Source: Takakia lepidozioides (taxonomy: Eukaryota > Plantae > Bryophyta). From it: 64,000 nt of DNA. The translations under genes were made by a program, and so were the position numbers. This document shows, one piece after another, positions 17,896 to 62,461 of this stretch (the stretch's first letter is position 1; the number at the start of each line of letters is the position of its first letter). The stretch covers positions 20,522,001-20,586,000 of the forward strand of contig CM060734.1 of the NCBI GenBank assembly GCA_030704615.1, in the 5' to 3' direction. Below the pieces are notes generated by a model. It searched no databases, was not told the DNA's origin, and saw only the letters and a list, made by a program, of their open reading frames with translations.

Positions 17896-18247
17896 TGATA
17901 AGAAAGCTAAGAACACACTGTTCACACAAGAAACAACATGAATCCAGCAGCATCACTCTTTAAGATAATAGTCGAGCCAGGGGCACCCCAAGCTATGGGA
18001 ACTCCACCCCACAACAACCTATACTCCCTACATAAGCACACTCAGATTCTAAAGCGTGAAGGAGCTCAGTCGCGCAGGCTCAACTCGAGAGAGATGAGCT
18101 GCGCGACTGACGCTCTCGTGAAGATAACGGTTCAGGTGTCAAACTAAACTTGACACCTCATTTAACACTTGACCTAAATCCAAGTGTTAAATACAAATAA
18201 CTAGCTTTATTCTAGTTAGTTTCACACTGTGCTTATTTAACTTGACA
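17896..18247 (-). repeat. 5' terminal repeat A of copy C
   Basis: Starts TGTCAAGTTA, ends TTATCA, contains the conserved hairpin at 18066-18110; no B segment upstream. Confidence 0.85.
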
Positions 18248-21849: not shown

Positions 21850-23910
21850 ATGGGAAGAGCTCCCTGCTGTGAGAAGACAGGGCTAAAAAAGGGCCCCTGG
21901 ACACCTGATGAGGACCAGAAGCTGGTGTCTTACATCCAACGCCATGGCCATGGCAGCTGGCGCGCTCTTCCAAAACACGCTGGTATGTCTCGCCTCAATC
22001 TCGAAATAAGCGCACTGTTATTGTGAGGGGGATCTAGGACAGGAAGAGATGTCACAGGCTCGTAGCAACCACGCAAGTCGTAGAGTAATGTTGATATGTA
22101 TAGGCTGAATTGTGCGAACGGTGAGTCGTGTGTTAGAGTGTGTTCCTCTCCTGTGTCGACCGTGCTTTGATGCAAGACTGTCCTAGATGTGGTGCAGGGT
22201 TCAGACCAGCCTTCTGCCGTTGTATGATCCTTGAAGTACTGCTCACTCTGTTGGTTAGACGCCTACCCAGCTAATACTGTAGACGACCACAGACAGGCCC
22301 ACTGAAAGATTGGACTTTGGATGTTTGTGCAGGCCTACTAAGATGCGGCAAGAGCTGCCGATTGAGGTGGACGAACTACCTGCGGCCTGATATAAAGCGC
22401 GGGCGGTTTTCTCTAGAAGAAGAGCAAATGATTATTCACCTCCATGCCATTCTCGGAAATAGGTTTGTGTTCTCTACCAGCTGGAAACTTTGTCTCTTGT
22501 ACTCTACATGTATGAGGAACCCAGCAAGTGCCAGCTTGTGTTCGAGGCAAAGTCCCTATCGCTCTCTTGCTCTGGGTTGCATGATGCTGGCACACTGCAC
22601 TGCCGTCTCTTCTTGTAAGGAATGTTATTAACCTGGCGAAAATGTGTTTACGTGGGTGCAGATGGTCAGCCATAGCTGCGCATTTGCCAGGGCGCACAGA
22701 CAATGAGATTAAAAACTACTGGAATACCCACTTGAAAAAGCGGCTGATGCAGATGGGGATAGACCCAGTGACACACAAAGCCAAGTCAGACCTTGTGCTG
22801 GACAACCCCGATGTGAAGCCATTGTTATCTTCCAAGTTAAGTCATATGTCCCAGTGGGACAGCGCGCGCATAGAAGCGGAAGCCAGACTTGCCAGCGAAT
22901 ATTTCAAGATGGGAAGCAAGGAACGCTCCACATTTGTCGCTAATCCTGCTCAGCTCGGCTCTGTTGCGTTTATGAGGACATGGAAGTCCCAAGTCACAGA
23001 ATCACTGCGGCAGCAGTTTGGTACAGTAAATTTTGACAAACCGACGGCGAGTGTAGATTTTCAGAGGTTTCTGCAAGATTGGGAACAATCTTTGCAAGGT
23101 CCTGCAGTAAATGTCTATGATTCTGCAATGCCAAGTGCTGCCTCCCCAGCCTCTGACTCACACTCCAGCCATAGTAGTCTACATTCCTTTGACAGCCAGG
23201 GCGGCCCCATTTTTTTAAATCATTTGTGTGAGGCGGTGTCGAAGGCATCCCATTCAAGCGTGGCAATGGATCACATGTCACCGACTTCTACTCTGTGCTC
23301 GCTAGATGCACATTCAAGCCAGTTTGGGAACAATGCCTCTGAAAATCTTCAAGAAGCAGAGCCAATTTTCCCGCGCGATAGGCTGCAGAGCCCATCTTCT
23401 GGATTATCGTACCAAAATGGTGGTCTGACAGAAGAAAGTAGTCCTACGTTTCCCTCCAGCTTACAGGCTAGTTCATTATTTGGCGCAAATCCAGACAGTG
23501 TCAAGAGCTCTACTGGGCATGGGTTTTGGCAGCAGCCGCAGATGATCGAATCTGCAATGAAGCGGTTCAGGGCTGAGGGCGCGGTTGTCAGACCAGTGCT
23601 TCCAGGGGTGAGCCTTGTGGATGCAATCCCTTCCGGCAGTCTCCTAAGTGAGGCCGATTTACTGTCAATTGAGAGTCCACAGACTACTGGAAGTGCCTTG
23701 ACCGAGAACTCCTACTCCTCGCTGCTAGCACCAGAGCTACTGCTTGATCTTGTGGACAATGTACGAGTTCCTACTTCCAAGAGTTGCTCATCACCAGCAT
23801 GGCCGGAATTGGGGAGCTTTGAGAGCAAGGACTATTGGACCAACATGTTGCAGCTGGTGAGCCAGACTCCGTTCCATCAACAACTTGGGACTGCCCCCAT
23901 TCATCAATAG
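21850..23910 (+). CDS. R2R3-MYB transcription factor, subgroup 9 (MIXTA/MYB16/MYB106/MYB17-like); exons 21850-21982, 22333-22462, 22662-23910; 503 aa
   Basis: [74 protein letters not shown]; canonical 133/130-nt first exons with GT-AG introns; [17 protein letters not shown] resembles the subgroup-9 AQWESARxxAExRL motif. Confidence 0.95.
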
Positions 23911-36877: not shown

Positions 36878-38393
36878 GTATTTTCTTTACTCCACATGAA
36901 AGGTCCCTTATTTTGAAAATGGACATTCTTGAATGGTTTCTGAGCAAACTGTAATCCATACCAGCGGTTTTAGACACCCTGACATGATCAGATGTGACTT
37001 CATAGACCAATCTCCTAGGAGAAGTGTGGAAACCCTGGGGTTTGAATGTTATCTCCAGCGGTTTTGCCCATCATGATTGGACCATGTTTTGCTGTGCAGC
37101 CACATGATCACCTGGGGTTACATTGTGAGCACTTATGTACTCATTCAACGGTGAGTTCAGAAGAGAAAGGGCAAGAAGGACAATTGAGCATAACCGAATT
37201 GCTGACTTTTCTAGCGTGGTTGCTACAAAGGGGGTAGTTGACTGCATGTCGTATGTATATATGTACACATCTGGCAGGTAGATCTGTTATGTTCCCCACA
37301 CTCTGTCATGGGTATCTATATGTTCATGGAGAGGGGTTGGTAATTTTGCAGGATATAGTTGGCAGGGTCTAAGATGCTCAAGGGGAACCTGCTTTAGACA
37401 ATGTGAGTTGCCAACCGTTTACGGGAGAATAAAGAGATGGACACATAGGGAAGGTAGGATGAGCACATTACTTAGTTTGGTGCTCTGGGTTTGTTGTTTC
37501 TTAAAAGCCTCTTCCTCAAAGCTTCATACATATAGCCAGTGGTTAGGCACCGTGACCAGAAAATACATGATTACGGCTTGTGTTGAAGGTTACGCTGCGA
37601 GCCATGGCTGCGGACATTGCTTACCAAATTTGGGATGTAGGGCTGGCATCATTCAGCTTTCTGATAGACACAATTCTGATCTTCAGTTTTCTGGTAATGG
37701 GGTTGTGGAGCACACGTTGAAAACCTTCAAATGGACACTCTTGCTGAAGTTCCACCCGACGTAAGCAAAGTCAGAGGAAGCCTACCATAAGCAATGTCAG
37801 AGGTCAAAGGGTAATTGTGGATTGTGGCCTGTATGTAGCATAGCGTTTTGCTCCTTGAGTTGGAACATCTGTATTAAAAAGGACTTCAAAAGTAGCTTAT
37901 CAAATAAAAGCACATACCAGCCAAAAAAAACTGTTTTGCTTTGGTACCTACACCAGCACCTTTGTGTAAGCATAGCCCTCAATCTTTTGTCCTGCATCCC
38001 TGCGAGCACACGTACGGTATAGCACGTACAATTGTCTTTTTAAAGATGCAATCCTTAGTGGATTGACTACTCATAATGCATAATGTTTTTAGTAGGACCT
38101 TGGGAGATCTAAACCTCTAAAACCTGCAAAAATTCCACTCATAAAGCGATATGGTGTTGGGTTTTGTGTCAAAACAACATATGTCCTTATGCCCGCCCAA
38201 CCTTTCGAACCCAAGTGGTGCATCACCGCCGTTTCATCTTCTTTTGTCGTGTCTACTCAGTCACCCCTCTCGCGCCCTTTCCATCTGCACTCTTCGCCCT
38301 TTTCCCTGTCTCTGTTCTTCTTATGCTCGCACCTGAGAGGGAGGGAGTTCGTGCACCAGAGAAGAGACATCGTCGCAAGCTCCGCAAATTGTA

Positions 38394-38719
38394 TGTCAAG
38401 TTATTTTACCACTAGTGTGAAACTAGCTAGGAAATAGCTAGCTTTTACATATTGACATTTGGGATTGGCCCAAGTGTCAATCCAGGGGTCAAGGCAGATT
38501 TAGGCCCTGGAGTGGTTATCTTCACGGCAAGCGCGGGAGGCTCATCTTTCTCGAGTTGAGCCTCACCGCGCCTAGCTATGGCGCCGTAGTGTGGATTCCC
38601 ATGGCGTGGGGTGCACTTGGCTTGACTTGTATTTGAGTGATGAGGTTATATATGCATGAGTTTATGCTTCAGCTTTGTGAGCTCGCATGAGCTTGTGCTT
38701 GTATTCTTCCTCTTTATCA
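38394..38719 (+). repeat. Terminal repeat A1
   Basis: Nearly identical to 48879-49205 (one substitution and one 1-bp indel seen). Confidence 0.95.
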
Positions 38720-38735
38720 CTCGAGAAAGATGAGC
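38720..38735 (+). promoter_or_regulatory. Putative self-priming primer binding site
   Basis: CTCGAGAAAGATGAGC is the exact reverse complement of 38540-38555 inside A1; does not start TGG as tRNA-3'-end PBSs do. Confidence 0.8.
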
Positions 38736-40244
38736 TCGTATCTATGAGTGCTAGATACGAGTTAGTTGTAGCACTTGTGGTTTTTGCTTGAGAATGAGAG
38801 AAACCAAGTTGTTATGCAAGGAGCACCGTGGAGCTCTTGGTTGTTAGAAGCGGAGGCGATGTGGGTTACGAGGTGGTAAACCTTGGCATTCGATCTTCAG
38901 CTTCAGAGATGAAAGCACCATACTGCAGGTAATTCCAGAGCACCTTGATGGTTTCAGATTGTGTACATGCATGAGCAAGCACGATTGGGAAGAGGACCAG
39001 TCAAGAGCAGGTTATAGTGGCTTTGGTGGCAAAGCTGAGAACTGGACTTGGGAATGCGAGCTTTCATTGTGTGAAGGATTGCAAGACCAAGCGAAAGGGC
39101 TGATTTGGCTTGGGGCAAATCAGTGCACTTTGTGGAGTATGGTGAGATTGGGTTTCAATCTCGAGCTTCAGCATTGAGAGGGCTCTTGTCATGGCAGAGC
39201 AGGGCTGGAACAGGAGCTAAGAGGTGCGGCAAGGCCATGGAATGTGCACCTAGGGTTTCAGCTTGGAAGAAGAGCTCTTGCACCACAAGAGAAGTGTCTT
39301 GTGGCTGGAAATGTAAGCCTTAGGGTTTCAGGAGCTTGGCAAAGGCTATGGAGTGCTTAGTCTTGTCTAGAGAGCATCAAGGAGCCAAGGAGCCAAGATA
39401 GGGGGCTGATATCTCTTGTGTGAAGAGGTTGCATGTGTGGAGCATGTATTCAGCTCATTGAAGCTTCCATCTTCAAGCTTGGAGGGCAAGCAAGGAAGAG
39501 GGAAGGGCTGACTTCCCTTATGTGAGGGCAATGTATGTGTGGAGCATGCTATCAGCCTGGTGAAGGCTTGCACTTTTAGGTGTGGGAGTGCAAGAAAGGA
39601 AGGAAGGGGCTGGTTTTCCCTGTAGGGCATGTAGAGCATGCTTTCAGCCTGCTGAAGCTTGTATTTTCAGGTTTGTGGGTGCAAGAAATGAAGCAAAGGA
39701 GCTGATTCTCTTATGGTGAGAGTGGGGCATGTGTGGAGCATGCCTTCAGCCCATTGAGGCTCTTGTTTTCAAGCCTTAGAGAGCTAGAACGGAAGGTCTA
39801 GGGCTGGTTTCCACTTGGAGTGAAAGAAAAGCACTTGTAGGGCCTATGTGAGTTGGGGTTTCAACTTCAAGCTTGAAGGGAGCGCAACTCTTGAAGCAAC
39901 AGGTGTAGAGGGCTGGAATAGGCTCTAAGACAGATGCTATGGCCAATGAGAGTGCTTGAATGAGTGCTCACAAGGGCTGGGAACCAGCAGGGCTTGGTTG
40001 TTTGCCATTGAGTTTAGTGGCGTGTTTGGGGAGGCTAAGTGAGAAAGAAGGCTTGGTTTGTGGCAACCACCTCATGGCTTAGGGCTACTATGGTGGTGTG
40101 GGGAGCCGAAAGAGCAAGGATACCTTGCTGATTTCCTCACAGCCACCATAGCTCGGTGGAAAGAAGCCTAGAGTCCAAGAGACACAAACCCTAGCTTGGC
40201 GTGGCTAAACCCCTTGGAGAAATGGCTAAACTGCCAGAGCGGCC

Positions 40245-40960
40245 ATGACAGGCTGTGGCAAGCTGTGTGTGGAACGGGCTGTGTGTGTGGGCTGTGATGG
40301 GCTGTGACAGGCTGTGTGCCCTGTGGGGCTGTGATGTTTGTGGGGGGGCTGTGACAGGCTGTGTGGAGGGCTGTGAGGGGCTGTGGACCTGTGACAGGCT
40401 GTGCCCTGTGCCTGTGGGGCTGTGACGGGCTGAGGGAAGGCTGTGGGGTGCTGTGAGGCACGGGCTGTGAGGGGCTGTGACAAATGTGTGAGTGTGGGGG
40501 CTGTGACGGGCTGTGAGGGCTGTGACAGGACTGTGACGGGCTGTGTGTGACAAAGGGCTGTGCAACAGGCCGTGCTGGCCTTTGGGGCTGTGACGGGCTG
40601 TGAACAAGGGGGCTGTGACGGGCTGCTGTGTGTGGCCTTTGGGGCTGTGACGGGCTGTGAGGGGCTGTGACAGGCAGGCCTTTGGGGCTGTGACGGGCTG
40701 TGAGGGGCTGTGCCTGAGGCCTTTGGGGCTGTGAGGCTGTGACAGGCCGTGCCTGAGGCCTACGGGCTGTGAGGGCTGTGACTGAACTGTGTGTGAGGGG
40801 GGCTGTGACGGGCTGTGAAACTGCTGTGGAATGTGAAAGGCTGTGTGTGAACAGGCTGTGCCCACCTGTGGGACTGTGACGGCTGTGACCAGTGAGCTGT
40901 GTGGGCCTGTGCTGGTCTGTGTGGCCCGTGTTGACCTGTGGATGGCCTGTGCTGACTGTG
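40245..40960 (+). repeat. Degenerate GGCTGTGA minisatellite in the 5' leader of copy B
   Basis: Dozens of ggctgtga/ggctgtg units. Confidence 0.9.
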
Positions 40961-41179
40961 GAGGCACTGGTGGACTAAGGACTGGCATGTGGTCTGGAAG
41001 GCCGAATTTCTCGTGGAGGGCGGTTTGAGGAGTATCTTCATGATATTCCCATGGTCATGCAAGTTCAGGTTAGGCTATGTTAGGAACTTAGTATTCCAAA
41101 CCATAAGCCGCAACAGGTTCTCTACCGGTTACCTTGTGGAGAGGGGGTTAGGGACATGTTCATGACCGGTTGAGTCAAC

Positions 41180-43720
41180 ACGGAGGTGCCACTAGTTGCT
41201 GGGGACAGTGCCGGTTCGAGCACTAGCGATACTAGTGGGTACACGAGACGAGGTGTGCGGTTTAGGCCACCTTCACCTCCTGTGTCTTCCACGGAAGGTT
41301 CTGATTCGGATTGTGAATCAGGAGGACTCATACCGGCGGTGCAAGTTGTTTCTTTGCCATTTGTGGGACACAATGGAGGAGATGTATGGAGCTACCAAGG
41401 GGCCACGAAGGTACTCTGGGGCGGTGGGCACCATCGAGTTGGATGATTTTATCCAAGAGTTTGATAGTTGGTGTGATTTGCAGCAAATGCGCAATCCACA
41501 ACTATTTACGCCTTCATGGCATGGAAAGGGCTGTTTCAGCACCTTGAGGGGCCGCCTATGGATGATTACCATGAGTTCAGGCGGGGGCATGAGGTTGAGA
41601 TCGAGGAGTGGAGGATGTACTGGTCACCCGACTATGTCTCCATCACTAGGGGCACTAGAGCCACGAGGGCAGTGGCTACACCTGCCGCTGCACCGGCAGC
41701 TTCAGCAAGCCAGTGGGACTGGTGGTACAGTAGCTACGACGTCCACCCAAGCCACTACCGCACCAGCACTAGCACCCGTGCCTGCCTTCAACCCTGTTGT
41801 GGAGTTCTTCGAAGAGTTGAGAGGGAACTACCAAGGGGTGAGGACAGAGAAGTTGCGGAGCTTGCAAGAGTTCCAACGGAAGCCGACCGAGAGCTTGAGG
41901 GAGGCTTTCACTCGCATGAGGCGCTTGATAAATGTAACCCAAGGGGTTACGGAAGCTCAGGCAGTCCAATTCTGGTATGGGATATTGGACAAGGAGCTGA
42001 GGAGAAGGGTGCGGGATGCAACTCTCCTACAAGCGGCCCAACCCACCTTAGCAAATGTGTTTTTGCTGGCAGAGCGGATAGAGCTCAACATGGTGGAGGA
42101 ACGAGTGGTCATGGTGGGATTTGCTAAGGAGACACCACGGGGTAGTGGTGCTCCTAGCCAACCACTACCTCAACGTGCTCAAGGCAACAAGGGGGCTCAG
42201 GTGAAGCTCAGGGAAGGGCAGAGAGGACCTCAGATGCAGGGGTCTCTCCCTTCATTTGCTGGCCAACAACGGGCGGATGTGGTGTGCTGGACATGTGGAG
42301 GACCCCATGTCAAGAAGGATTGCCCAGAGGGAGGCAAAGGGCGGCACATGCACAGCCTGCACAGTTGCAGTGTGGGCATTGTGGCAAGCACGGGCATGGA
42401 GAGGCCCAGTGTTATGGTTTGCATCCTGAGTTGCGCCCAGGCCAGTTCCAAGGGAACATGGTGGCCGGGGGCGAGGTGGAGCAGCCCAGAGAGGACGAGG
42501 CCAGCCACGAGGTGCAGGCCAAGGGCAAGCTCAACGTGGCCAAGGACGCGGAGGTCAGGGTGTTGACCAAGGCATGGCCAACCGGCTTCAGCAGCTAGAG
42601 CAGAGGCTCGCTGCCATGGCTACAGCTCAGGTGGTACCGCTCTAAGGCCGGATGGTCCACCTCCTGCTCCTGAGGAGGAGATATGGGAGGCATGGGATTC
42701 ATGTGTGGAGCAGCACTACCACTAGTGCAGGTGGAGTCTGCTGCAGCCGTGACTCGAGGAGCAGCACGAGTTCCTGAGCCACGAGGTGCAGAGGTGGAGT
42801 TGGATCCACAGCGTGGGGAGGCAAGCCGTCAGGCTAGGCTTCCTCAGTCATTCACATTGGCGGAGACAGTGTCGACGCCATCCATGGCACCTAGTTCTCG
42901 CCCGACTGTTACCGAGGCGGAGGTTACTATGCCATTGGGGAGAGCTACACGGGTAGCACCACTACCTAGTGTTGCCAAGGCTACGGCAGCTAGTGTGCTG
43001 CTAGGAGCGGCCACATCTGTGTGCCAGGCTCCATTGTTCTCGGCTACCATGATTGCGACGCCGGGGGTAAGACCAGCTGAGGTGTTCAGGCTGGCAGCTA
43101 CACTCTGTGAGAGTGGGGAGGTTACTTCATCTTCTGCGGAGATAGTGGGAGGTGTAGTGCCGGAGGGATCCTCGGATTTGAGGGTCAAGACTGCCACGGC
43201 GGCGCCATGGCAAGCTGCAGCTGCCAGGTTGATGGAGCTGCCAGCTAGGCCAGCCATTGAGCGCGCCATGGTGACACCTGGAGTTGTCATGTTAGACAAC
43301 CAGGATGGCATTTTCTGTTTGAGTGGACCGGCAGGCAAGAGGTACCGGCCACTGCGGTCTTGTTGGACTCGGGAGCTCAGCCATTGATGCTGGGCAGAGC
43401 TGCTATTGCAGGCTTGGGCCTCACGGAGGCGGATATGGAGCCTTGTCCTTTCCAGATACAGACGTCTCTGGGAGGATCGGAGCAGGCTCGGGGCATGACA
43501 CGGCGTGAGTTGGCTATCAGACTACGGCCGGATCACCCTACAGATGGCTCAGTGATGCGAGCCAAGGCCATTGTGACAGACGCAGTCTCATACGATGTCC
43601 TGGTTGGTGGGGCAGTGTTGTACCCCATGGGCTTCACCCTGGATTTTTGGGAGGAGTCAGCTTCCTATAGGCCTGCATGGCAGTCAGGGGAGGGCCGGCG
43701 TGTGCAGCTCCCTGTGACGT
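41180..43720 (+). pseudogene. gag (two CCHC knuckles) and aspartic protease of copy B, split by frameshifts
   Basis: ELDDFIQEFDSW; FQRKPTESLREAFTRM; CWTCGGPHVKKDC; CGHCGKHGHGEAQC; LDSGAQ...YDVLVG. Confidence 0.9.
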
Positions 43721-44069
43721 TCATAGGAGGAGTTGCGGTTGCCCAGCGAGGCAAGATGCCGACACTAGCAGCATTCACAGCGGCAGTGAGTTGGCCTAGA
43801 GAGTTGCTTGAGGGCAATGCTCATTCAGAGGATGTACCACCTCCGGAGAGCAGGATGACATGTATGGTATGGCGGAGTTGCCTACCATGGTTGCTCAGAC
43901 TCCATTGTGGGGCACGAGCAAGGATTTGCAGCGGGATGCTGATCGACGGGTGCAACAAGCCTGGGTGGAGGCTTTTGTACCGTCAGGAGAGGAGGAGAGT
44001 GTGGGGATTGCACCAGGACCACCTCAATTGTCTCCATTGGACACCACACCTATTGTGTGGCAGTATCCG

Positions 44070-45020
44070 GATGAAGGCATTTGTCTTCTGGACTTGTTTG
44101 GCGGGATCAGCACCGGATTGGCTGCTGTGTTACAGGCAGGTGTACGAGTTCGGCGTTACCTGTATGTGGAGAGGGATGAGACTGCACGACGCGTCACTTC
44201 GCCATGTTGCTCAGTTGGTGCAGCGGTACCCTGAGTTGTTGTCGGTGTCTGCAATTCGTGGATATCAGCAGGCCTTGCCAGCAGACATTTCGTTGCTGGG
44301 GGCGCAGGATTTGGAGCGGTTGGCTCCATTGATCTGGTAGTGGCAGGTTGGCCCTGCCAAGGGCATTCATCAGCCGGGCATGGCAATGGATTGCGAGACT
44401 CGAGGTCGGGTCTGTTTTGGGAGATGGTGCGGGTTTTGCGCCACTTGCAGCTTCATCAAGCTGTATCTCCAGCATACATCTTGGAGAATGTGCCACTGAT
44501 GGGCGATTCTCGGGCCAGGGTGATGGCCAGTGTGCATCAAGTCCGGTCGTGGCTTGGGTCAGCAGTGTTGCTAGATGCAGCTACAGTGGGGTCACGGGCT
44601 CATCGTCCACGGCTATGGTGGACTAACTTGATGCCACCCGCACTGCTCAAGCGTGCATTTGATGGGGTGCAGCGGCCAGCACATCTCACAGTGGATAACA
44701 TTCACACAGGGAGGCAGTCTCAGTGTGAGACACGATGACCGTTCGCCTTTGGCAGTGGTCAACAAGGTGGGTCAACCACGAGCAGCATTACCTACACTGC
44801 TCAGCTTCCCAGGATCGCATGCTTTCCGGGATAGTGGACCTGGCCTCCTGTGGGATGCTCAGTTGCAGCAGTTAGTGGAGCCTAATGCTGACGAGCGTGA
44901 GCGGGCAATGGGTTTTACCACTGGTACCACGGCGGTGTCGTCTCTTTCTGAGGCATCACGTCGTCAAGTGTTGGGGCAAGCAATGGATCTCAATTGCTTG
45001 ACCTGGATTATCAGCTTGGC
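44070..45020 (+). pseudogene. DNMT3-like DNA (cytosine-5) methyltransferase domain within pol
   Basis: ICLLDLFGGISTG, YLYVERD, VAGWPCQGHS, SGLFWEMVRVL, YILENV, AHRPRLWWTNL, ERERAMGF, RRQVLGQAM; catalytic PC intact; small frameshifts. Confidence 0.93.
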
Positions 45021-45474
45021 TCTGCTGAGCAACGCAGAGTGCGGAATACACTTCCCTCAATGGTCTCTCTGCCTACCGAGACGGTACAGGCAGTGAGTGG
45101 GGGCGAGCATGTGAGGACCACGGGGTGCATGCATCCATGGCACACGTGGGAGGTGCTCGAGGTTCAGAGGGAGTTGGCAGCCAAGGCGGCTGTGATGGAT
45201 GAGGTTGGGGATTCTTCTCGGTTGAGGAGGTCCTCAAGGATGAGATGATGGGGCAGGATGAGGCCTTGTCATTGACTGAGCAGGTAGGGAGTACTGCTCA
45301 AGAGGTTGCAGCATAGCAACCACGGACGCGTCCTCTACCTCTAAGCCCACTGGACTTAAGGTTGTAGTTACGGAGGACAATTGGGAGCCTGACATTGGAC
45401 CCATTGTCACCGGAGGAGAGAGACGACGTATACGGCGGTTCCTGAGGGCTTACAGGAATTGCTTTGCCTTCAGT

Positions 45475-46800
45475 TTGAAGGACTTGGGAGCACTGAAGGG
45501 TCAAGAGATCCGTATTGAGTTGGCCACTGACACGCCAATCTTTCGGAGACCCTATAGATACAGTGACATGGAGAGGTCTTTGATTCAGATGAGGACTCAA
45601 GATCTCTGGGAGGCAGGTTTGGTGGAGCTCTCTGGTGGAGAGTATGCTTCAGCCACAGTGATGCCAGCCAAGAAGGATGTCTATGGCAATTGGACGGAGA
45701 GACGTATGTGCGGTGATTACCGGCCTGTAAATCGTCAGACCAAGTCCGATAAGTATGCCATGCCAACACCAGAGGAGATCTTTGATGCCATCGGGCATGC
45801 TAAGGCCTTTAGCACTTTGGATTTACGATCCGGATATCACCAGTTGCCAATCAAGGAGGCGGACAAGCAGAAGACGGCATTCTGGGGGATCAATGAGCAC
45901 GGCAAGGATTGCCTATATCAGTGGCGGTTCTTACCATTTGGGCTTAAGAATGCTCCTGCAGAGTTTCAGAGAGTCATGGATAGGATTCTAGCAGGGGTGG
46001 ACTTTGCTCGGTGCTACATAGATGACATCATCATCTTTAGTGTTACGATGGAGGAGCATGAGAGACACCTTCAGGTGGTATTGGAGCGCTTGAGAGCGCA
46101 CGGATTGAAGTTGCATCCGGGAAGTGCAAGTTTTTCCACAACCAGATTGAGTATCTGGGTCACATGATATATCCTGGAGGATTGGGGGTACAGCAGACTA
46201 AGGTAGAGGCCATTGCACAAATTCCACGCCCCACGGATGTGAGCCGAGTTCGAGCTTTCATGGGGTTGGCAAACTATTATAGACGGTTTGTCAAGGGATT
46301 TAGTACCATTGCAAAGGCTCTAACCAAGCTGACCAAGGTGGACCAGGAGTGGCAGTGGGAAGATGAGCAGGAACGAGCTTTTCAAGAGCTCAAGGCGAGG
46401 TTGACCTCGGCGCCTATCTTGAGACGACCTATCAGGGGGCGTCCCTTTCAGCTGCATACGGATTGGAGCATGCTGGGGCTTGGAGCGGTGCTCACACAGG
46501 TGGATGATGAGGGAAGAGAGTTCGTAGTGGCTTACGCTAGCCGCTCGAACAACGCTGCAGAGGCTAAGTACAGCTCATATGAGGGAGAGTGCTTAGCTGC
46601 AGTGTGGGCCGTGGCACACTTCAGGTGCTATCTATACGGCAATCTTTTCACCCTTGTCACGGATCACCAGCCACTCAAGTGGTTGATGGAGTCAGACAAG
46701 CTTACGGGAAGCTTGCACGGTGGGCACTTATACTCCAGGAGTATGACTTTCAGGTTGTGCATCGACCGGGTTTGGTCAATCGGGATGCGGATGGATTGAG
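45475..46800 (+). pseudogene. Reverse transcriptase and RNase H of copy B
   Basis: CGDYRPVN, LDLRSGYHQ, PFGLKNAP, YIDD; TDWS, EGECLA, TDHQPL. Confidence 0.96.
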
Positions 46801-47194
46801 TCGCAATCCATGCATGAGCCAGCAGGATGACACTGGAGCTCGGTGGCATGGTGAGACGGACGAGGAGATGGTGCCGGGATGGCACGCATCTGCATTTTTG
46901 TGTATCTTGGCATCGGGAGGTCAGATTGGACCTACAACAGGGATGACTGTAGACGGAGTGTCTGAGGACCCTGAGGCTAGTGATGAGCTAGGTGGTGCCA
47001 GAGATATACAGGATTCGGCTGTGTTGGACTACCTCCGCACGGGAGACACGGCAGCCATTGTGACTGCCAGGGAGAGGGATCGGATCCTGCAACGAGCCAA
47101 GAGGTTCAAGTGGGAGGGGATACACCTACTTCGAGTGTGGGAGGATGGTCGGGTGAGGATTGTGCCTCACCCCACACAGCGTGCACGGTTAGTG

Positions 47195-48290
47195 CGGCAT
47201 GCCCATGAGGAGTTGGGGCATTTTGGAGTGCGACGCACTCACAGTTTACTGCAGGGGCAGTATTGGTGGCGTGGTATGCATACAGAGGTGCAACAGTTTG
47301 TGGCTAGGTGCATGGTGTGTGACAGGGTGCGTGCTTCATTCAACGCCCCTACACCACAGTTGCATCCTTTACCAATCATGGGATTGGGCTACAGGTGGAG
47401 TCTTGACTTCGCAGGACCGTTGCCACTGACTATGCGCCACCACAGATATGTGTTGGTGATGGTGGAGCACTTCTCCAAGTGGATTGAGTTGGTTCCATTG
47501 CCTGACAAGGCTAGTGAGGGGGCTGCGTATGCATTCTTGGATCGTGTGCTTAGCCGATTTGGTGCTCCAGCTGAGGTACTCACGGACCAAGGGAGAGAGT
47601 TCTTGGGGGAGTTTCAGGCTTTGTGTGATAAAGCCTTGATAGACCACCGCACCACTTCTCGGGATCATCCTGAGGCCGATGGCTTAGCAGAGAGAGTTGT
47701 TCAGACGGTGAAGAGGGGTTTGCGCAAGTATGGCTTGCAGAAGGGACACCTAGGAGATTGGGATCTTCAGGTTCCTTGGTTAGCCATGGGCTACAGGTTC
47801 AGCAAACAAGCATCACTTGCCTCCTTCTCACCATATTTCCTTCTCTTTGGCCGAGAGCCGGATTTGCCTGCAGCCATTCGTAGGGACACTGCTCAAGTCC
47901 TTAACCTTGACGATCCGGACGTGTGGGTACGTGCATGTGATCAGCGTGCAGAGTTGTTCAAGAAAGTCATGCCCATGGCTTTTGAGAACCTTGCCATTGC
48001 ACAGCACCGTGATACGTTGAGGTATGCCACTATACGTGGTGGAGGATATCGTCCTGGGGTTCGGAGGTTTAGCCCTGGTGACTATGTTTATTTGCAGCAG
48101 ACTGCTCCTACGACTCTGGATGTTACTGCAGGGCGTGTTATTCTGAGGGTTCGAGAGGTGTTGCCCTCAGGGGTCCTGATCTTGAGGGTCGGGATGGCAT
48201 GACTTGGAAGACCATGTGCGTAATTGTGCGCCATGTCACCTTCCCAATGTCGATGGCAGAGTTGACCCAAACTTGGCAGTGGTACCTGCA
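47195..48290 (+). CDS. Integrase domain (HHCC plus DDE) of copy B
   Basis: HAHEELGHFG, CMVC, SLDFAGPL, LTDQGREF, DGLAERVVQTVK in ORF 46589-48202. Confidence 0.93.
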
Positions 48291-48298
48291 GGTTTGAG

Positions 48299-48443
48299 GT
48301 GCATGCTCTGTGGGTCTGCCAAAGGGGCAGCCACCATGCTGGTGTGTGATCGATGCTCAAGGGGTTGGCATATGGGATGCTTGACACCACCTCTTGAGAA
48401 GGTTCCTGACGGAGATTGGTTGTGTCCACACTGCTTGGGATAG
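48299..48443 (+). CDS. PHD finger at the integrase C-terminus
   Basis: C4HC3 pattern CMLC..LVCDRC...[23 protein letters not shown]. Confidence 0.92.
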
Positions 48444-48690
48444 TGGCAGTGGACATGACTGGAGGCAGCTAACAAGACATGGGAGGCCAAGCTCATAGGA
48501 GTCAATACATGAGATCCCAAGCTCAAGTTCACAGGTTGCAAGACGGCGACTAACGATGGGGCAACTCTTGCACCCGGCCTCTTGATCTATCGAGTTTGAG
48601 TGTAGTAGGGAGTGGTGGAGGACTTAGTGAGGCTATGGTCACTATCACATCTTGTGGCTACCTGGACTTAGAGGGACCTAAGCACCAGCT

Positions 48691-48700
48691 AGGGGGGCGA
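48691..48700 (+). promoter_or_regulatory. Polypurine tract
   Basis: AGGGGGGCGA immediately before the TG that starts repeat B1. Confidence 0.7.
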
Positions 48701-48701
48701 T

Positions 48702-49393
48702 TGTGTGGACTAGTGACTGCCATAGTGGGCAGCATAGTGGCAGCCTAGTGACTGACTAGTTGTAGCCTAGTGGTTGGACTAGTGGTGACTAGTGGTATAC
48801 TAGTGTGTGGTGTGCACATGTGTTGTGTGGTTTTGGACAGCGATGTAGTTGTGTAGCGATATGTATGCGCACGACAGCTGTCAAGTTATTTTACCACTAG
48901 TGTGAAACTAGCTAGGAAATAGCTAGCTTTTACATATTGACATTTGGGATTGGCCCAAGTGTCAATCCAGGGGTCAAGGCAGATTTAGGCCCTGGAGTGG
49001 TTATCTTCACGGCAAGCGCGGGAGGCTCATCTTTCTCGAGTTGAGCCTCACCGCGCCTAGCTATGGCGCCGTAGTGTGGATTCCCCATGGCGTGGGGTGC
49101 ACTTGGCTTGACTTGTATTTGAGTGATGAGGTTATATATGCATGAGTTTATGCTTCAGCTTTGTGAGCTCGCATGAGCTTGTGCTTGTATTCTTCTTCTT
49201 TATCATTGTGTGGACTAGTGACTGCCATAGTGGGCAGCATAGTGGCAGCCTAGTGACTGACTAGTTGTAGCCTAGTGGTTGGACTAGTGTTGGACTAGTG
49301 GTAGACTAGTGGTATACTAGTGTGTGGTGTGCACATGTGTTGTGTGGTTTTGGACAGCGATGTAGTTGTGTAGCGATATGTATGCGCACGACA
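48702..49393 (+). repeat. 3' terminal repeat block B1-GC-A2-T-B2
   Basis: B1 48702-48876 matches B2 49207-49393; A2 48879-49205 matches A1. Confidence 0.95.
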
Positions 49394-49606
49394 TGTACTT
49401 TGGACGTAGGCCAATGCCGAAGGGGAGGAAGCAGATGCGTCTTTAGAATGAGATTGCCATCTCGCAGCAGCAGGCCACGCAGGCAACCCAGCCACCAGTG
49501 AGAGCTCCGTGCTATCGGGATGCGCGCAGCTGATTGAGCACCGAAACCCCCCTCATTTTTCTTGTGCAATTCTTAGACTGTATGCTAGGAGACTTGAATG
49601 CAGAAG

Positions 49607-52600
49607 ATGTTTGCATGCCTAACTGGAAAGGTGGAGGTGCTGGAGGGATCGCAGGAATCCGAAGAGCCGTAGGAAGAGTCCGTGGAGCTAGTTGCAGCAC
49701 GCACACCTAGCCGATCCACGAGCACAAGTCTTCCTGCCGGGCCTAGCCCTATGCGTTTCAAGGACGCGGCTTGGAAGGGCAAGTCTTTGCAGTTCAAAGC
49801 CCCAGAGAGCGACTCGCGCTCGAAGGTCATGGAGAATTGCCAACAGGGGTCGGGCCTTTCTCCAGCAAAGACGAAGAAGAAGCAGCCCGTCCTTCAACTG
49901 GTTTCTGAACCGGACCGGGCCGTTTCCCCCCCACCCAAGTGAATGAAGCAGAAGGGTACAGGGCATATTCAAATGCAGCAGACACCTTCACCTGCAAGAA
50001 TGAGGAAGCAGAAGGCAATCAGGGGGAGGGCGGAGCAGTCTCCCACAAAACCGATTCCACGAGCTGAAGCCCAATTCCTGCTTGATTTCCAGCCTGGTGA
50101 TGTTGGGGGCGTCTCTGCTGCAGCGAAGGCAATGGGATTGACCGATTTCGTCGATCTGTCAGCAGAGGAGGGTGCTGCTGCTCAACGTTCGCAGCAAGAC
50201 CTGACCACCGTTGAGGAAGATCTTCAGAATACTGCAGGCCCGGAGGAGGCCTCTACAATGGCAGAATTGCCCGCAAAGATTCCCCAGAGTGCAGCTCTAG
50301 TTGGGGATGCTCTAGCTGCTCAGCCCTTACTGCCACCTGCAGAAATGTCTCCGGAGGAATTCCAAAGTGCAGCGGATACAATGTTGGAGGAGACACACAG
50401 TAGCATTGGCAAAGTTCTAGGCAGCAGGGTATTCCAGCGGACTCTTCGAATCCCACTCTGTCGCATGGTCTCCCTTCCCATCGTCAGGCAGGCACTTCCC
50501 GGAGATGTGGATAAGCTCAAGTTCGCATTTCGAGAAGGGTACCGTCTAGGTTCGCCAGCCTTCTACGTTTCCATTGAGAATGAGGACGGCGAAACTCGTG
50601 GACCCACTGCGGATGAATTGTCAGCATGGGATACCCACTGGCACACTCGCAACGACAAATTCGAGGCAACGCTGAAGGGTGAATCAGACTTCGGCCATAT
50701 GTCGGGTAAAATGTTCTTTGTGTGGGACGGGAATCACCGACTTCTTGCCTGGTGGGAGTACATCAAGCAAAACCATGCCAAGCATATTGGCTGACATTAC
50801 ATGGTGGAGTGTGTCATCCTCAAGGTGAAGGCGGCAGACTCCTCCCTGCTCAAGAATGCCATGGCGGACCTCAACTTGTAAGATACTCATACCCTCCCAA
50901 GCACGTTCGAAATGCGGTGCCACATTTCGGTTTCCAATCTGTTTCGTTTCCGTGCTTCCGTGGACTGAACTGGAGAGTGTGCCTTGCAGGGTCACTGAAA
51001 ATGCGTACGTGCATACCCACATGGCACATATGCTGTACAGGGTGAGGAAAACTGGTCTCACTGATCTGCACATGTTTGCGGAAATGCTGGAGCCCGAGCT
51101 CATTCAGAAAGCCGTGGCAAAAACAGACCGGACATGATATCGTCTCACTATGGATGGAATGGTGGAGGTGATATACGAAGTAAGTCGTCCTCCCATTTCC
51201 CTCTGCTCATCCTTCCCCAATTTTCAGTAATCTTTCCACATGAATCGAATGTAACACCTCTGCATGTTTTTGTTGGCAGTCAAACATCAAGCTGGATTTG
51301 GCCCATGCCAAACGCTTCTTCATGAAAAGTGAGGGGCAGGTCAAAACGTTGCAGTCATTGACTGAGCACTTGAAGGAAGCCAGGGTCAAATCCAGAACCA
51401 AATACAAGTCAAAGCTTGTGAAGCTGGTGGCCATTGCAGATCCGGCACTTGGAAAGGACTTCATCCTCGAGATTGCAAAACACTATTCTCGGGCCATGCA
51501 GCCGACCATGCAGTTGGAGAAACTGCATCACCTCTCAACGACATGTGTTGAGGCGAAAGAGAAGGTGAGGTTTCATTACACTGAAGTTCCTTCCTAGCAA
51601 TAGCCACTCGGCTTCCTGCTCCTGACATTGGATCGGAAATGGCAGACACGGTGGCTGTCGATCTGGAATGCATCGGAGAGTATAAGGACAATGTGGTCTT
51701 TTCCACTCGAAGTTTCCGACCCTGCAGTGGATGTGTGGCTCAACCGCTTGACTTGGTGGTTCCAGGTAATTCAAGGTATTTCCCCCCTTTTTGCTTTTCT
51801 GAAATGAATTCCGTAAACTGCTACGTGACAACACATGTAGGAATCGCAGATAATGACGAATGCGAAGGAGCAAGTCGTAATGCATACAAATTCGTTCGGC
51901 TTGTACGTCAAATGGGATAGAACACAGACATTGGAAGACTACGTGACACGTTTTAGATGTGCGTACAAGGACAACCTCTTCGCCAGGGAGCTGCAGACAG
52001 CAAGAAAGAGCGTGGAGTTTATACATCAGGAGGGAGCGGGAAAAGCTGCAATGCGAATTGTTTACAGGTGAAGCCCAGCTGCCCTTGTATGCGAAGCTTG
52101 GTTATGAGGTTTGTCTGGGAAATGCGGCACCGCATTCACATTTTATGTTTTTGGTTGCACTCTGCGAATACGTTGGTCTCAACTTCTGCTCACGCATGCT
52201 GACTGCCCTGCAGGTATATGAAATACGTGCTTCTTTAGACAGGGGCCCTGGCTCAAGAGCCCCCGTTCTTCATGGCTTGGACCGTGGCGGGCCCAAGCTG
52301 TGTCTACACACCCGATATGCAGAAACAATGGCATGCCGCGCATCTTGTTGGATGCCCGTGGTACCTGGACATGTCTGGCGGAATTGTTGACAAGTCTGAG
52401 AAAGATCTGCACGCGAAAGCAAAAGAGAAGAGAAAGGAAAGACGTGTCCCTGCTGGGCCAGAGTCGGCAAAGGAAGCTGCTACTCTGGAACAATCCAGAA
52501 AGGCAGCTGAGATGGCACAGAAGACGGTAGATACAGCTGTGCAGGCTCAACAAAAGGGGTCGAAGAAGAAGACTCGCCAGCAAGGAGCAGCAGTTGTGAC

Positions 52601-53480
52601 ACGGAAGAAGACAAAGAAGCAGAAACAGATAGAGCAGGAAGAGGGTGACGAAGAGGACTCCGATGGAGACTTTGCAACCAGCCCACCCCCCAAAACGCAG
52701 CCAAAATCCCCTGTGCCCACCGTTGTCACGAAAGGGACGAGAACAGGCTTGGCAAAGAAGGCACTCTTCAACCCCCCGGGGGGGCACCCTTTCGAGCCGA
52801 TGGAAATTAAGAGCCCGATACAGTAGTCCAATGTGTCAATGAGAGTTTCTTGGCGGCTTTGGATGGACGGGCAGCCAAGTTGACATACATCAAGACCATG
52901 GAGGGTCTGAAGGGCAGAGCACTGAAGAAGGCGGCTGCCAAAGAGCCTTCCGACACCCCTGGGTTTCTGAAGATGGTCTCGTTCTTTGAGAGGGTGTGTG
53001 CAGACAATGATTGTAGGAGGGGCGAAAAAGCCACCGAGTGGTCTTGCGATATGATCATCTTGGATATTCCGGACGGAGAGCCTGTGGAAGGACTGGAAGC
53101 TTTGCCATCTTGGAACAGGTACTCCGAGGACTTTTGGAAGAAAGGATTTGGGCTCGCCCGCATGGTGTTGGACGACAGAGGCTGTGTGTTTGTCCTGGCG
53201 AGCAGAGGCAAAAACACGCAGACAGGAATTGCGAAGTGAACCCGCAAGAGCGCCGTCCAAATTCTGAAGAAGAAGTGGACGTGCATCAACACATGGGGCC
53301 TTCGGTCGGAAGGGAAGAAGGTAATTACGACATTGACACTCGTCCTTTCATTTTGTTAGGTGTTTTGAAATGCGGTGCCGCATTCGATTTCTAATCGTTC
53401 CCCACTGTGTATGCAGACGAAGCAGTTCGATGCATACTGCTTTGTGAAGGAGAACTCCACCTTTGCTTTCCGGAAGGATG
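49607..53480 (+). pseudogene. Multi-exon pseudogene: ParB/Srx-like domain plus C-terminal beta-class N4C/N6A methyltransferase-like domain; cut by a retroelement at 53481
   Basis: FFVWDGNHRL at ~50711-50743; CDMIILDIPDG...FW..GF..ARMVLDDRGCVFVL at ~53045-53200; GT-AG introns near 50878-50989, 51179-51278, 51565-51840, 52109-52213, 53321-53416; several in-frame stops. Confidence 0.6.
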
Positions 53481-54458
53481 TGTCATGCACCTAAGCATCG
53501 TGCCACAACATACATCGCTGTCCAACCACACTTCCTCAGGGTCTTCAGACACTCCGTCTACAGTCATCCCTGTTGTAGGTCCAACCTGACCTCCCGATGC
53601 CAAGATACACAAAAAAGCAGATGCATGCCATCCCGGCACCATCTTCTCATCCGTCTCACCATGCCACCGAGCTCCAGTGTCATCATGCTGGCTCGTGCAT
53701 GGATTGCGAATCAATCCATCCGCATCCCTATTGACCAAACCCGGTCGATGCACAACCTGAAAGTCATACTCCTGGAGTATAAGTGCCCACCGTGCAAGCT
53801 TCCCCGTAAGCTTGTCTGACTCCATCAACACTTGAGTGGCTGGTGATCCGTGACAAGGGTGAAGAGATTACCGTATAGATAGCACCTGAAGTGTGCCATG
53901 GCCCACACTACAGCTAAGCACTCCCCCTCATATGAGCTATACTTAGACTCTACAGCGTTGTTCGAGCGGCTAGCATAAGCCACTACGAACTCTCTTCCCT
54001 CATCATCCACCTGTGTGAGCACCGCTCCAAGCCCCAGCATGCTCCAATCTGTATGCAGCTGAAAGGGACGCCCCCTTATAAGTCGTCTCAAGATGGGCGC
54101 CGAGGTCAACCTCACCTTGAGCTCCTAAAAAGCTCGCTCTTGCTCATCTTTCCACTGCCACTCCTAGTCTACCTTGGTCAGCTTGGTTAGAGCCTTTGCA
54201 ATAGCACTAAATCCCTTGACAAACCGTCTATAGTAGTTCGCCAACCCCATGAAAGCTCGAACTCGGCTCACATCCGTGGGGCGTGGAATCTGTGCAATGG
54301 CCTCTACCTTAGTCTGCTGCATCCCCCATCCTCCAGGATATATCATGTGGCCTAGATATTCAATCTAGTTGTGGAAGAACTTGCACTTCCCCGGATGTAA
54401 TTTCAATCCGTGCGCTCTCAAGCACTCATCCCCCAGAATGTCGTCTTCTGCTTGTCCG
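53481..54458 (-). mobile_element. DNMT-Gypsy family fragment E: terminal part of repeat B joined by deletion to RT/RNase H sequence
   Basis: 53481-53536 matches B at 54459-54514; 53537-54458 encodes RNase H/RT (FQLHTDWS, LVTDHQPL, IYPGG). Confidence 0.85.
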
Positions 54459-57544: not shown

Positions 57545-58230
57545 AGAGGTGGACGGTCATCATGTCGCACCCTCTGTGGTTGTCTCCCTTGGTCCAAAAT
57601 GCCCTCAACCGTGAGATTGGGTGGCCGATGAATGGAATCGTATGCTCTCTTGAGCAGCTTTGGTGGTGCAAGATTGGTTCACCACAATCAAGGTCGATGC
57701 GCGCGTGATCCCACCACTGCTGCATCAATAGCACCGCCGATCCAATCCAAGACCGCACCTGATGCACACTGGCCATAACCCTGGCCCGAGAATCCCCCAT
57801 AAGAGGAACATTCTCTAAGATGTAGCCTAGAGGTTGCACTTGCCTCGTCTGCAAGTCCCGCAACACTCGCAACATCTCCCAAAACAAATGCGATCGTGCA
57901 TCATGCAAGCCATTCCCATGACCTGCGGGAGAGTGTGGCAAGCCATCCGGTTATCACCAAGTCAATGGAACCATGCCGCTGCAAATCATCCGCCCCCAGC
58001 AAGGTAATGTCTGCTGGCAAGGCCTTTTGATACCCTTGAACTGCTGAGAGAGGCAACAACTCAGGATACCGGTGTGCCCCCGGTGTGTGAGCAAGGCAAT
58101 GTGGCGCATGGAAATACCCTGAGCAATCTCATCCTTCTCCACATACAAGTACTTGCGTACTTTAATCCCTGCTTGCAACACTCCTGCAAGCCCAGTGCTC
58201 ATGCCTCCAAACAGGTCTAGCAAACAAATC
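57545..58230 (-). pseudogene. Truncated DNMT3-like domain of copy D
   Basis: GICLLDLFGGMSTG, YLYVEKD, LFWEMLRVL, YILENV, SRAHRP; motif IV disrupted and C-terminus deleted. Confidence 0.85.
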
Positions 58231-61200: not shown

Positions 61201-61985
61201 GGTAGAGAACCTGTTGCGGCTTATGGTTTGGAATACTAGGTTCATATTCTGAACCTGCACCTGCACCTGCATCCACCGCAGGCACTCCTATGGTCTGCTG
61301 GTCATCAACCCAGCCTCACCATAAGAGAAACAATGATGGTCTGCTGGTCATCACCCAGCCTCACCACCGACAGCACGCTCTAGGATTGGCCGGCCACAAT
61401 ATTTCCGGCACAACCACTATAAAAGCAAGCGCCCAAACCAAACTAGCATGGCGCACAGTCAAGCATGCATGTGTGGGAGGAGGATCCAAACACAGGAAAC
61501 TCAAACAACAACACCTCCCACAACTTAAATCCATCGATCCTTGCGGCTTCAATAAACCTGCAAGATGCCAAGTCTCTATCCAAACCAGCTCTGCCTCCGC
61601 TTACGGAAAAGCTTTGGCCTACAAGAATGATGGAAGACTATAGAGAAGAGAAGCTAAAGCAATCTCTAAGCCCAGAATGCTCTCATCCCATTACTCCCCC
61701 TATCTTCACACTCACTCTTGCTTAAGCAATAGATAAGACTATCCTTAAATAACCTCTCAAATAACTCTCAAGAGCCCTCAAATTATTGCCATGAACTTCT
61801 GAAATCTGCCCTCAATCACCCCTAACATAGACCCACCGAGGTTCAAGAAGTTCGCAAACTTGGACTCTAAACAGTCCACCAAAAGGCCCTAGGCGCCCGC
61901 CAATTAGTGGCCTCCATGGTCTCCAACCAGCCCTCACAATGGCTCCACAAGCCTGCCCAATATGGCCTCCAAGAGTCCTCCAAAC

Positions 61986-62161
61986 CCCTTAAGAAGCTCC
62001 TCAAATCTGCCAAGTATTGGTCTCCAAGGACCTCCAACAGTCCTCCAACAACCCTTAAGAAGCTCCTCAAATCTGCCAAGTATTGGCCTCCAAGGACCTC
62101 CAACAGCCCTTAAAAAGCTCCTCAAATCTGCCAAGTATTTGCCCCCAAGGACCTCCAATAG
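61986..62161 (+). repeat. Three ~55-66-bp tandem repeats in the leader of copy D
   Basis: cccttaagaagctcctcaaatctgccaagtattggcctccaaggacctccaacag x3. Confidence 0.9.
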
Positions 62162-62461
62162 TCCCCCAAAGAGCTTAGAAAACTCCATAAGCCTGCCCAA
62201 TATGGGCCTCCAAGGACTCCAATCGTCTCCAACCAGCCCTCACAAGGCTCCACATGCCTGCCAAACATTGGCCTCAAAGAACCCCAAATAGTCCTTCAAA
62301 CAACCCCAAGCAGGCTCCACAAGCCTGCAAGATATTGGCTTCAATAGACCCCAAATAGTCCTCAAACAGGCCCCAATACCTGCAAGATATTGGCCTCAAT
62401 AGACCCCAAATAGTCCTCAAAGCAGGCCCCATAAGGCTCCAAAAATATCCATAGTCAGTCG

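Follow-up and report, generated by a model that had tools for sequence, protein, structure and literature searches.

Why retrotransposons carry cytosine methyltransferases (MTases) has been an open question since 2018, and the hosts in which such elements were described are hard to work with. The closest described system is KnitGypsy-Dnmt3 of the alga Klebsormidium nitens, which, according to the available text of de Mendoza 2018 (PMC5890265), combines gypsy domains with a Dnmt3 domain in the Pol ORF alongside reverse transcriptase (RT), DIRS-like repeats and Ka/Ks values below 0.2. The domain gave no methylation in yeast, a result that the authors call inconclusive, and the available text contains no mention of a PHD finger, of self-priming or of a mechanism for the ends (PMC5890265). 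SymbioDIRS-Dnmt3 and SymbioLINE-Dnmt, described in the same source, and the EpiLTRs (bioRxiv 10.64898/2026.05.21.726589, available text) resemble the element reported here in being retrotransposons that bear a C5-MTase; SymbioDIRS-Dnmt3 also has A-B-A-B ends and performs de novo CG methylation in yeast (PMC5890265). Unlike our element, the Symbio families use tyrosine recombinase or LINE machinery (PMC5890265), and the EpiLTR DNMTs are sister to DNMT4 and accompanied by DAM and a chromodomain (bioRxiv 10.64898/2026.05.21.726589). A 2025 paper and the same preprint, in their available text, cite KnitGypsy-Dnmt3 under 'streptophytes' with no species list, and their supplements may name bryophytes. 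A literature search, with subscription papers, Repbase entries and bioRxiv supplements outside its scope, returned no report of such elements in land plants, and the available texts of bryophyte methylation papers make no mention of MTase-bearing gypsy elements.

The window analysed here is a stretch of 64,000 nucleotides from the moss Takakia lepidozioides (contig CM060734.1, positions 20,522,001 to 20,586,000). Like KnitGypsy-Dnmt3, its main element has the gypsy domain set, a Dnmt3-like DNMT in canonical motif order, A-B-A-B repeats and purifying selection. Unlike KnitGypsy-Dnmt3 as given in the available text (PMC5890265), it resides in a land-plant host, is very abundant and belongs to a family in which a conserved in-frame stop separates the MTase from RT, so that the DNMT does not share the ORF of RT. 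MTase capture and split ends are thus already published for an alga; what the present locus would add is spread to land plants and chlorophytes, a conserved stop predicted to make the MTase a Gag-level product, and self-priming. We assign a probability of roughly 0.68 to the overall reading that this is a young copy of the Gypsy-Dnmt3 kind, with a Gag-protease-MTase frame, an RT-integrase-PHD part made by readthrough, and a packaged MTase acting on the element's own cDNA.

Layout, copies and ends of the element

The Ty3/gypsy element spans 11 kb at 38394–49393 on the forward strand, with the MTase domain lying between protease (PR) and RT (Table 1). Its order of PR, RT, RNase H (RH) and integrase (IN), its DDE integrase, polypurine tract, TG...CA ends and target-site duplication are those of a Ty3/gypsy element; in place of two complete direct LTRs, the ends read A...B-A-B. 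An identity as a DIRS, Ngaro or PAT tyrosine-recombinase element was rejected on the basis of the rve and H2C2 matches, the 4-bp duplication and the lack of a recombinase match among the scanned ORFs. The aspartic protease was recognised by motif, and Asp_protease_2 of Pfam was matched weakly by the related proteins P0040 and P0247. The split repeats and PHD finger reported in the initial annotation are both present; its suggestion that the repeats might be undescribed does not hold, as they are stated for KnitGypsy-Dnmt3 in the available text of de Mendoza 2018 (PMC5890265).

Table 1. Features of the element and of related copies, in window coordinates.
Feature	Position	Strand	Evidence or remark
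Left copy of 4-bp target-site duplication	38390-38393	+	right copy at 49394-49397
Repeat A1 (TG...CA), element left end	38394-38719	+	325/327 aligned letters match A2
17-nt stretch complementary to 38719-38735, predicted self-primer at transcript 5' end	38540-38556	+	
Predicted primer-binding site, self-priming type	38719-38735	+	complementarity
gag with CCHC knuckle (42371-42412), frameshift-broken	41380-43300	+	Retrotrans_gag E 0.003, below cut-off
Aspartic protease, LLDSG at 43360-43374	43357-43720	+	motif
DNMT3-like C5 cytosine methyltransferase domain, three frame breaks	44070-45020	+	motifs I-X in canonical order; catalytic PC, EN, RxR kept
In-frame TAG then CAA CCA, end of Gag-PR-MTase ORF; predicted leaky stop	45314-45322	+	
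Reverse transcriptase and RNase H	45346-46760	+	RVT_1 E 7e-27; RT_RNaseH_2 E 9e-34; RT YIDD at 46015-46026
DDE integrase with H2C2 finger	47170-48190	+	Integrase_H2C2 E 4e-16; rve E 8e-14
PHD finger, end of integrase region	48300-48434	+	PF00628 E 6.2e-12
Polypurine tract and 1-nt spacer before B1	48690-48701	+	
Repeat B1 (TG...CA)	48702-48876	+	
10-bp palindrome GACAGCTGTC at B1/A2 joint	48873-48882	.	halves are the element's two ends
Repeat A2	48879-49205	+	
Repeat B2, element right end	49207-49393	+	matches B1 without mismatch; 12 further letters
3' end (partial B, A, B) of a further copy	2044-2546	+	joints identical in kind
MTase domain of copy 2	10572-11466	-	all motifs, frame-broken
MTase motifs I-VIII of copy 3	57545-58214	-	deletion runs into RT

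Three copies of the MTase domain had been claimed for the window; two are full (copy 1, within the element of Table 1, and copy 2), whereas copy 3 is truncated and retains motifs I–VIII only. Copy 2 is about 92% identical to copy 1 over 5.1 kb, with one stop among its aligned MTase codons. Copy 3 (75–80% identity) has two stops in the MTase and a deletion at about 57544 that takes motifs IX–X and the RT start. In copy 1 the MTase is split over two frames by breaks at about 44200, 44317 and 44722, followed by three more between motif X and RT. Five of these six breaks fall, among the rows listed from sequencing runs of the same organism, at places where many copies vary by 1–2 letters, and the sixth is a loose-end place in the same rows. 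Because none of its 789 aligned codons in PR, MTase, RT and RH is a stop, the A and B repeats are near-identical and the breaks lie at such variable places, the element appears to have inserted recently, and most of its breaks appear to be indels from sequencing or assembly, some real decay being possible. The family is very abundant, since more than 61,000 family contigs were found in each of two sequencing runs of one sample, a figure that is not a copy number. An assembly chimera was discarded as an explanation, the domain order being common to 80 loci and dozens of proteins.

In the 5' leader of copy 1, about 2.6 kb long, a tandem array rich in G (with units like ggctgtgac) occurs together with longer imperfect repeats at 40170–41050 and 39400–39950, and a C-rich mirror array lies at 61900–62450 beside copy 3. 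A diverged A-like repeat (71%) at 17951–18247 on the reverse strand, about 4 kb upstream of the gag of copy 2, is perhaps the 5' end of that copy or part of a related family.

From left to right, the element reads target-site duplication, A, internal region, polypurine tract, B, GC, A, B and target-site duplication, the duplication being of 4 bp. Locus L066 has the same layout, though its repeats share little sequence with those of the window. An exact 4-bp duplication was found in eight of ten loci with both ends. B is followed by A in eight loci and by flank in 14 (some loci duplicate each other). Shorter A-internal-B forms, each with its own 4-bp duplication, were seen in L026, L030, L036, L041, L047 and L080; these may stem from B1–B2 recombination, a one-LTR circle or two cuts, and they would be dead on arrival because they have no 3' A. 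In each family, A2 and B2 are separated by the letters that also follow the polypurine tract (t in the window, gt in L017 and L060), as would be expected of an end-to-end joint; further spacers read at in L066 and L076, and longer inserts occur in L040 and L052.

With a primer site after A and a polypurine tract before B, ordinary reverse transcription would give an LTR of B+GC+A at both ends. A reasonably probable model of the ends starts from B+GC+A as the working LTR, so that reverse transcription would yield the usual two-LTR DNA. The ends of this DNA would then be joined, followed by opening by integrase at the palindrome of the upstream LTR, which would leave the insert with A as its left end and B as its right end. 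A staggered cut at GACAGCTGTC would give integrase-ready ends. B stands ahead of the 5' A copy in none of 29 loci, and the opening is therefore one-sided; a symmetric two-LTR-circle model, which predicts this mirror form, was rejected on the same count. The predicted cut resembles the action of foamy-virus integrase on 2-LTR junctions, where a DDE integrase cuts a palindrome to free the ends; in foamy virus, as far as the available text states (PMC1180852), the palindrome is the LTR-LTR junction, whereas in the window element it is internal to the predicted LTR, and the joint between the two ends is retained after insertion. The permuted ends would offer a naturally occurring example of a DDE integrase that apparently makes use of an internal palindrome.

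Priming is highly likely to be of the self-priming type, as judged from complementarity. No TGG-led tRNA primer site was seen at the predicted primer-binding site (38719–38735), and the fold of the 5' leader at 38538–38745 has a z of -8.19. Loci L054 and L066 show a 17-nt primer pairing with sequence differing from that of the window, and pairing of at least 10 nt at the corresponding place was found in only nine of 21 loci, and shuffles reach 7–10. The arrangement is like that of the self-priming chromoviruses Tf1/Sushi and plant Tcn1 in the available text of PMC6317226, with no tRNA site and a 5' leader complementary to the primer-binding site; unlike these, the window element has a PHD finger instead of a chromodomain, an MTase and permuted ends.

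Methyltransferase domain and its lineage

All six C5-MTase motifs were located in copy 1 in canonical order (I 44094–44108, IV 44346–44357, VI 44478–44492, VIII 44598–44609, IX 44893–44916 and X 44962–44982), as the initial annotation had read them, and the PC, EN and RxR residues are in place. The unbroken piece with motifs IV–VIII matches Pfam DNA_methylase PF00145 with E 4.1e-13 (49.9 bits, where the cut-off is 22). Structure comparisons were run on an unbroken relative, P0007, which is 70% identical to the window piece. Among solved structures, the top 25 of 49 rows for P0007 are DNMT3A/B/C, followed by DRM and then by the HaeIII and HhaI enzymes. Its predicted model (pTM 0.78, mean pLDDT 70.6, with pLDDT below 50 across much of the predicted target-recognition part) hits DNMT3 in all 32 Foldseek matches listed, with a best E of 7.5e-17 and 19–23% identity. 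The nearest solved structures of P0007, by sequence and by fold, are thus DNMT3, and its motifs are not rearranged as in DRM; on these grounds the window domain is a DNMT3-like C5-MTase, as first proposed. A search of the ESM Atlas gave PF00145 clusters only, streptophyte first and phage next at equal score, and does not discriminate.

Of the catalytic residues in the aligned copies, Cys is conserved in 80 of 80 and Glu in 79 of 83; Asn is present in 82 of 83, the motif I Phe in 75 of 77, and the two Arg of motif VIII in 57 and 64 of 81. Pairwise Nei-Gojobori dN/dS was computed with 100 codon bootstraps after filtering of low-identity codons, which lowers dN somewhat. For the MTase it was 0.27 (interval 0.14–0.44) in the close window pair and 0.11 (0.04–0.16) and 0.14 (0.08–0.20) in the divergent window pairs, and 0.15 for the pair L002–L035, so that all but the close pair lie below the Ka/Ks of 0.2 that marks Gypsy-Dnmt3. 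The corresponding RT values for the three window pairs were 0.17, 0.07 and 0.05. Close pairs within a decayed metagenome family gave 0.44–0.76 for the MTase, with two of three intervals reaching 1, and 0.25–0.60 for RT; dS is saturated in most cross-family pairs. The claim of a stable family domain is supported by this purifying selection, and the domain is probably an active C5 enzyme.

With an E limit of 1e-30, a profile search returned 518 clusters made at 50% identity. Relatives with a named source belong to Marchantia polymorpha, Calypogeia fissa, Sphagnum troendelagicum, S. fallax, Closterium, Haematococcus, Scenedesmus and Klebsormidium nitens; no vascular plant appeared among them in searches of 46 and 53 matches, which is weak evidence. 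The window MTase pieces are 70–80% identical to bryophyte element proteins and 39–50% to algal ones, and a link to a land-plant host DNMT3 is not needed. Recent capture from a host DNMT3 was rejected, the P0007 model being about 20–23% identical to human DNMT3 against those 70–80%. The enzyme would rather be an old element-borne lineage, inherited or passed among green plants.

MTase trees of element proteins only were built with FastTree (190 rows) and, for 52 chosen rows, with a quick IQ-TREE run and midpoint rooting. They split by architecture into a clade with the MTase after protease and another with the MTase between RNase H and integrase. The former (33 rows, SH-aLRT 97; FastTree 0.974) comprises bryophytes, Closterium and K. 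nitens GAQ93235.1, and nested in it is a ten-row clade (SH-aLRT 100) that places the window piece with Marchantia and Calypogeia; K. nitens sits on a long branch in the midpoint-rooted IQ-TREE tree. GAQ93235.1 shows the order knuckle, protease and MTase, as in the window element, and aligns to the relative P0002 over 572 residues at 31%. The Dnmt3-like domain, the A-B-A-B repeats and the grouping with the K. nitens protein are features of Gypsy-Dnmt3, and membership of the Klebsormidium-type lineage is, on sequence grounds, very likely indeed.

The clade with the MTase between RNase H and integrase holds chlorophytes, and its motif IV often reads PCE or ECQ. It is large, including P0043, P0046, P0079, P0080, P0162 and others with a C-terminal PHD finger, and we found no paper on it. 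RT precedes the MTase in 76 of 160 proteins of 900 aa or more, and a PHD finger accompanies the MTase in both architectures. Many bryophyte gene models labelled 'DNA methyltransferase' are such elements, and DNMT counts are inflated. The occurrence of the lineage in Marchantia polymorpha, a genetic model, makes the substrate and sequence context of the MTase testable.

Stop codon after the methyltransferase and role of the enzyme

Both full window copies carry TAG CAA CCA about 110 codons after motif X (45314 on the forward strand in copy 1; 10235–10227 on the reverse strand in copy 2), and in copy 2 this stop is in frame with RT. Its conservation was assessed from these two copies together with metagenome loci: 83 sequences were surveyed (80 loci, the best 80 of 92, plus the three window copies), 58 of which could be anchored at the RT start. 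An in-frame stop lies 14–21 codons upstream of the RT start in 53 of the 58, in the contexts TAG CAA CCC (30), TAA CAA CCC (17), TAG CAA CCA (2) and four others seen once each, with CAA directly after the stop in 52 cases. Of the other five, two have insertions and one a frameshift; copy 1 has the stop but changes frame downstream of it, and L071 has a Tyr codon. After removal of duplicates, the stop was present in 50 of 51 distinct sequences matching the site pattern; decay yields stops at 1.3% of codons, with no single position exceeding 27%. In the divergent L035 the frame stays open over 328 codons back from motif X and over 766 codons past the stop. A stem-loop downstream of the stop is weakly indicated, with z from -0.86 to -3.29 in six sequences (-0.8 to -2.7 on 100-nt pieces) and a double change in seven of 29 pairs. 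The literature search, which left aside subscription papers, Repbase entries and bioRxiv supplements, gave no report of a stop between MTase and RT.

Among 41 proteins with a protease before a whole MTase, 27 end 27–163 residues past motif X without RT and 12 continue into RT, so the stop is not universal; the domain-order expression used for sorting misplaces a few proteins (P0064, P0069 and P0079). GAQ93235.1, marked partial, also ends after the MTase. The K. nitens protein P0247 and its relatives P0084 and P0285 end about 27 residues after motif X with similar tails, and a stop or frameshift after the MTase may occur in Klebsormidium-type elements too.

The context agrees, completely or partially, with CAR-YYA, the signal of leaky stops in plants. 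In TMV, readthrough depends on CAR-YYA after UAG and reaches about 10% in vivo; the signal is effective behind UAA as well (PMC2754532, available text). Like the UAG-CAR-YYA of the TMV replicase (PMC2754532) and the stops of MuLV, SIRE1 and Tca2 (PMC2194720, available text), the window stop separates two frames in phase, and as in these leaky-stop systems it is followed by CAA and a pyrimidine-led codon. Unlike in MuLV, SIRE1 and Tca2 (PMC2194720), it stands after protease and MTase, not between gag and protease, and its readthrough is predicted. Because of the conserved in-frame stop with CAA-CCN, Gag-PR-MTase is, as a reading frame, the primary predicted product, and RT-RH-IN-PHD is likely to be made by readthrough. 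The initial annotation had assigned the MTase to pol; the stop instead splits it from RT and makes it the end of the Gag-PR ORF, and packaging would therefore proceed from a Gag fusion rather than from Pol.

That the stop is real but RT-IN starts internally, or is translated from a transcript of its own or from a spliced RNA, is unlikely. In the main metagenome family, whose CAA CCC is one letter off CAR-YYA, an ATG does stand three codons downstream of the stop; in the Marchantia model P0006 MTase and RT are joined, and the gag-pol junction of Tca2 has promoter activity of its own (PMC2194720, available text). The window copies and L035, however, have no ATG after the stop and yet retain TAG CAA CCA in frame with RT, the CAA next to the stop is almost invariant, and other Marchantia models end 96–98 residues past motif X. 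With readthrough as the preferred source of RT-IN-PHD, the MTase would enter the particle fused to Gag and in Gag-like amounts, be freed there by the protease, and methylate new cDNA before insertion, so that the insert would arrive pre-marked. An MTase dose at the Gag rather than the Pol level points to a job on each cDNA, and we lean slightly towards the element's own cDNA as the substrate. No footprint of self-methylation specific to the element was found in CpG ratios and C-T contexts: the CpG ratio is 0.62 in the MTase, so that depletion there does not exceed that of the host MYB exon (0.53), and copies 1 and 2 show the same level of C-T differences in CG as in CHG (0.14 each). Such measures do not tell self-methylation apart from host methylation.

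Proteins usually reach the particle through fusion downstream of Gag and protease. This position, and the likewise packaged one between RNase H and integrase in the other clade, speak against an MTase that works on chromosomal copies, once insertion is complete or in trans, where it would be a self-limiting silencer or lay down a mark read with the PHD finger. We consider such action rather doubtful, even though Gag-level output would supply free MTase as well, the PHD finger accompanies the MTase in both architectures, and a host-beneficial slowing of transposition was raised by de Mendoza 2018 (PMC5890265, available text). Retention of the domain for its fold alone, as a spacer or DNA-binding module that does not catalyse, would be compatible with the inconclusive yeast result for the Klebsormidium domain (PMC5890265) and with the low pLDDT in the target-recognition part of P0007; the near-complete retention of Cys, Asn and the motif I Phe, and the CG methylation by related SymbioDIRS-Dnmt3 domains (PMC5890265, available text), make it quite improbable. 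Least probable is a service to integration, in which the MTase would mark or bind one palindromic joint and leave the other as the sole one for integrase to open: according to the available text of de Mendoza 2018 (PMC5890265), A-B-A-B ends occur in both LTR-type families that bear Dnmt3, the opening is one-sided with no mirror form in 29 loci, and the joint has CAG/CTG cytosines, its GC reading AT or AC in three loci, but that decay is explained by host CHG methylation. Beyond packaged action on cDNA as the favoured role, a wider scenario is speculative: a green-plant-wide gypsy lineage (the 518 clusters, chlorophytes to bryophytes) would have carried a DNMT3-type enzyme since before land plants, and in its bryophyte branch a leaky stop would give one MTase per Gag; self-primed cDNA would be joined and coated with 5mC in the particle, then opened on one side at the internal palindrome, with methylation helping to choose the cut.

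Neighbouring sequence

A probably spliced or broken gene at 49943–53500 on the forward strand starts 550 bp to the right of the element and holds the motifs WDGNHR, which we take to be ParB-like, and ILDIPDG, presumably like the DPPY motif of N4/N6 methyltransferases. It had no Pfam match better than E 0.09 and no PHROG or solved-structure match; it could be a second, unrelated methyltransferase. Another fragment of the family, at 53481–54427, abuts it. The last exon of an R2R3-MYB gene of the MIXTA/MYB16/MYB106 type was found at 22651–23910 on the forward strand; its best named long-coverage matches are from Physcomitrium, Diphasiastrum and Marchantia (moss, lycophyte and liverwort) at 35–38%, none of them close, which makes a non-seed land plant the likely host. 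Gag fragments of another gypsy element (Retrotrans_gag E 4e-8) occupy 255–1329 on the reverse strand, abutting the partial B-A-B end at 2044.
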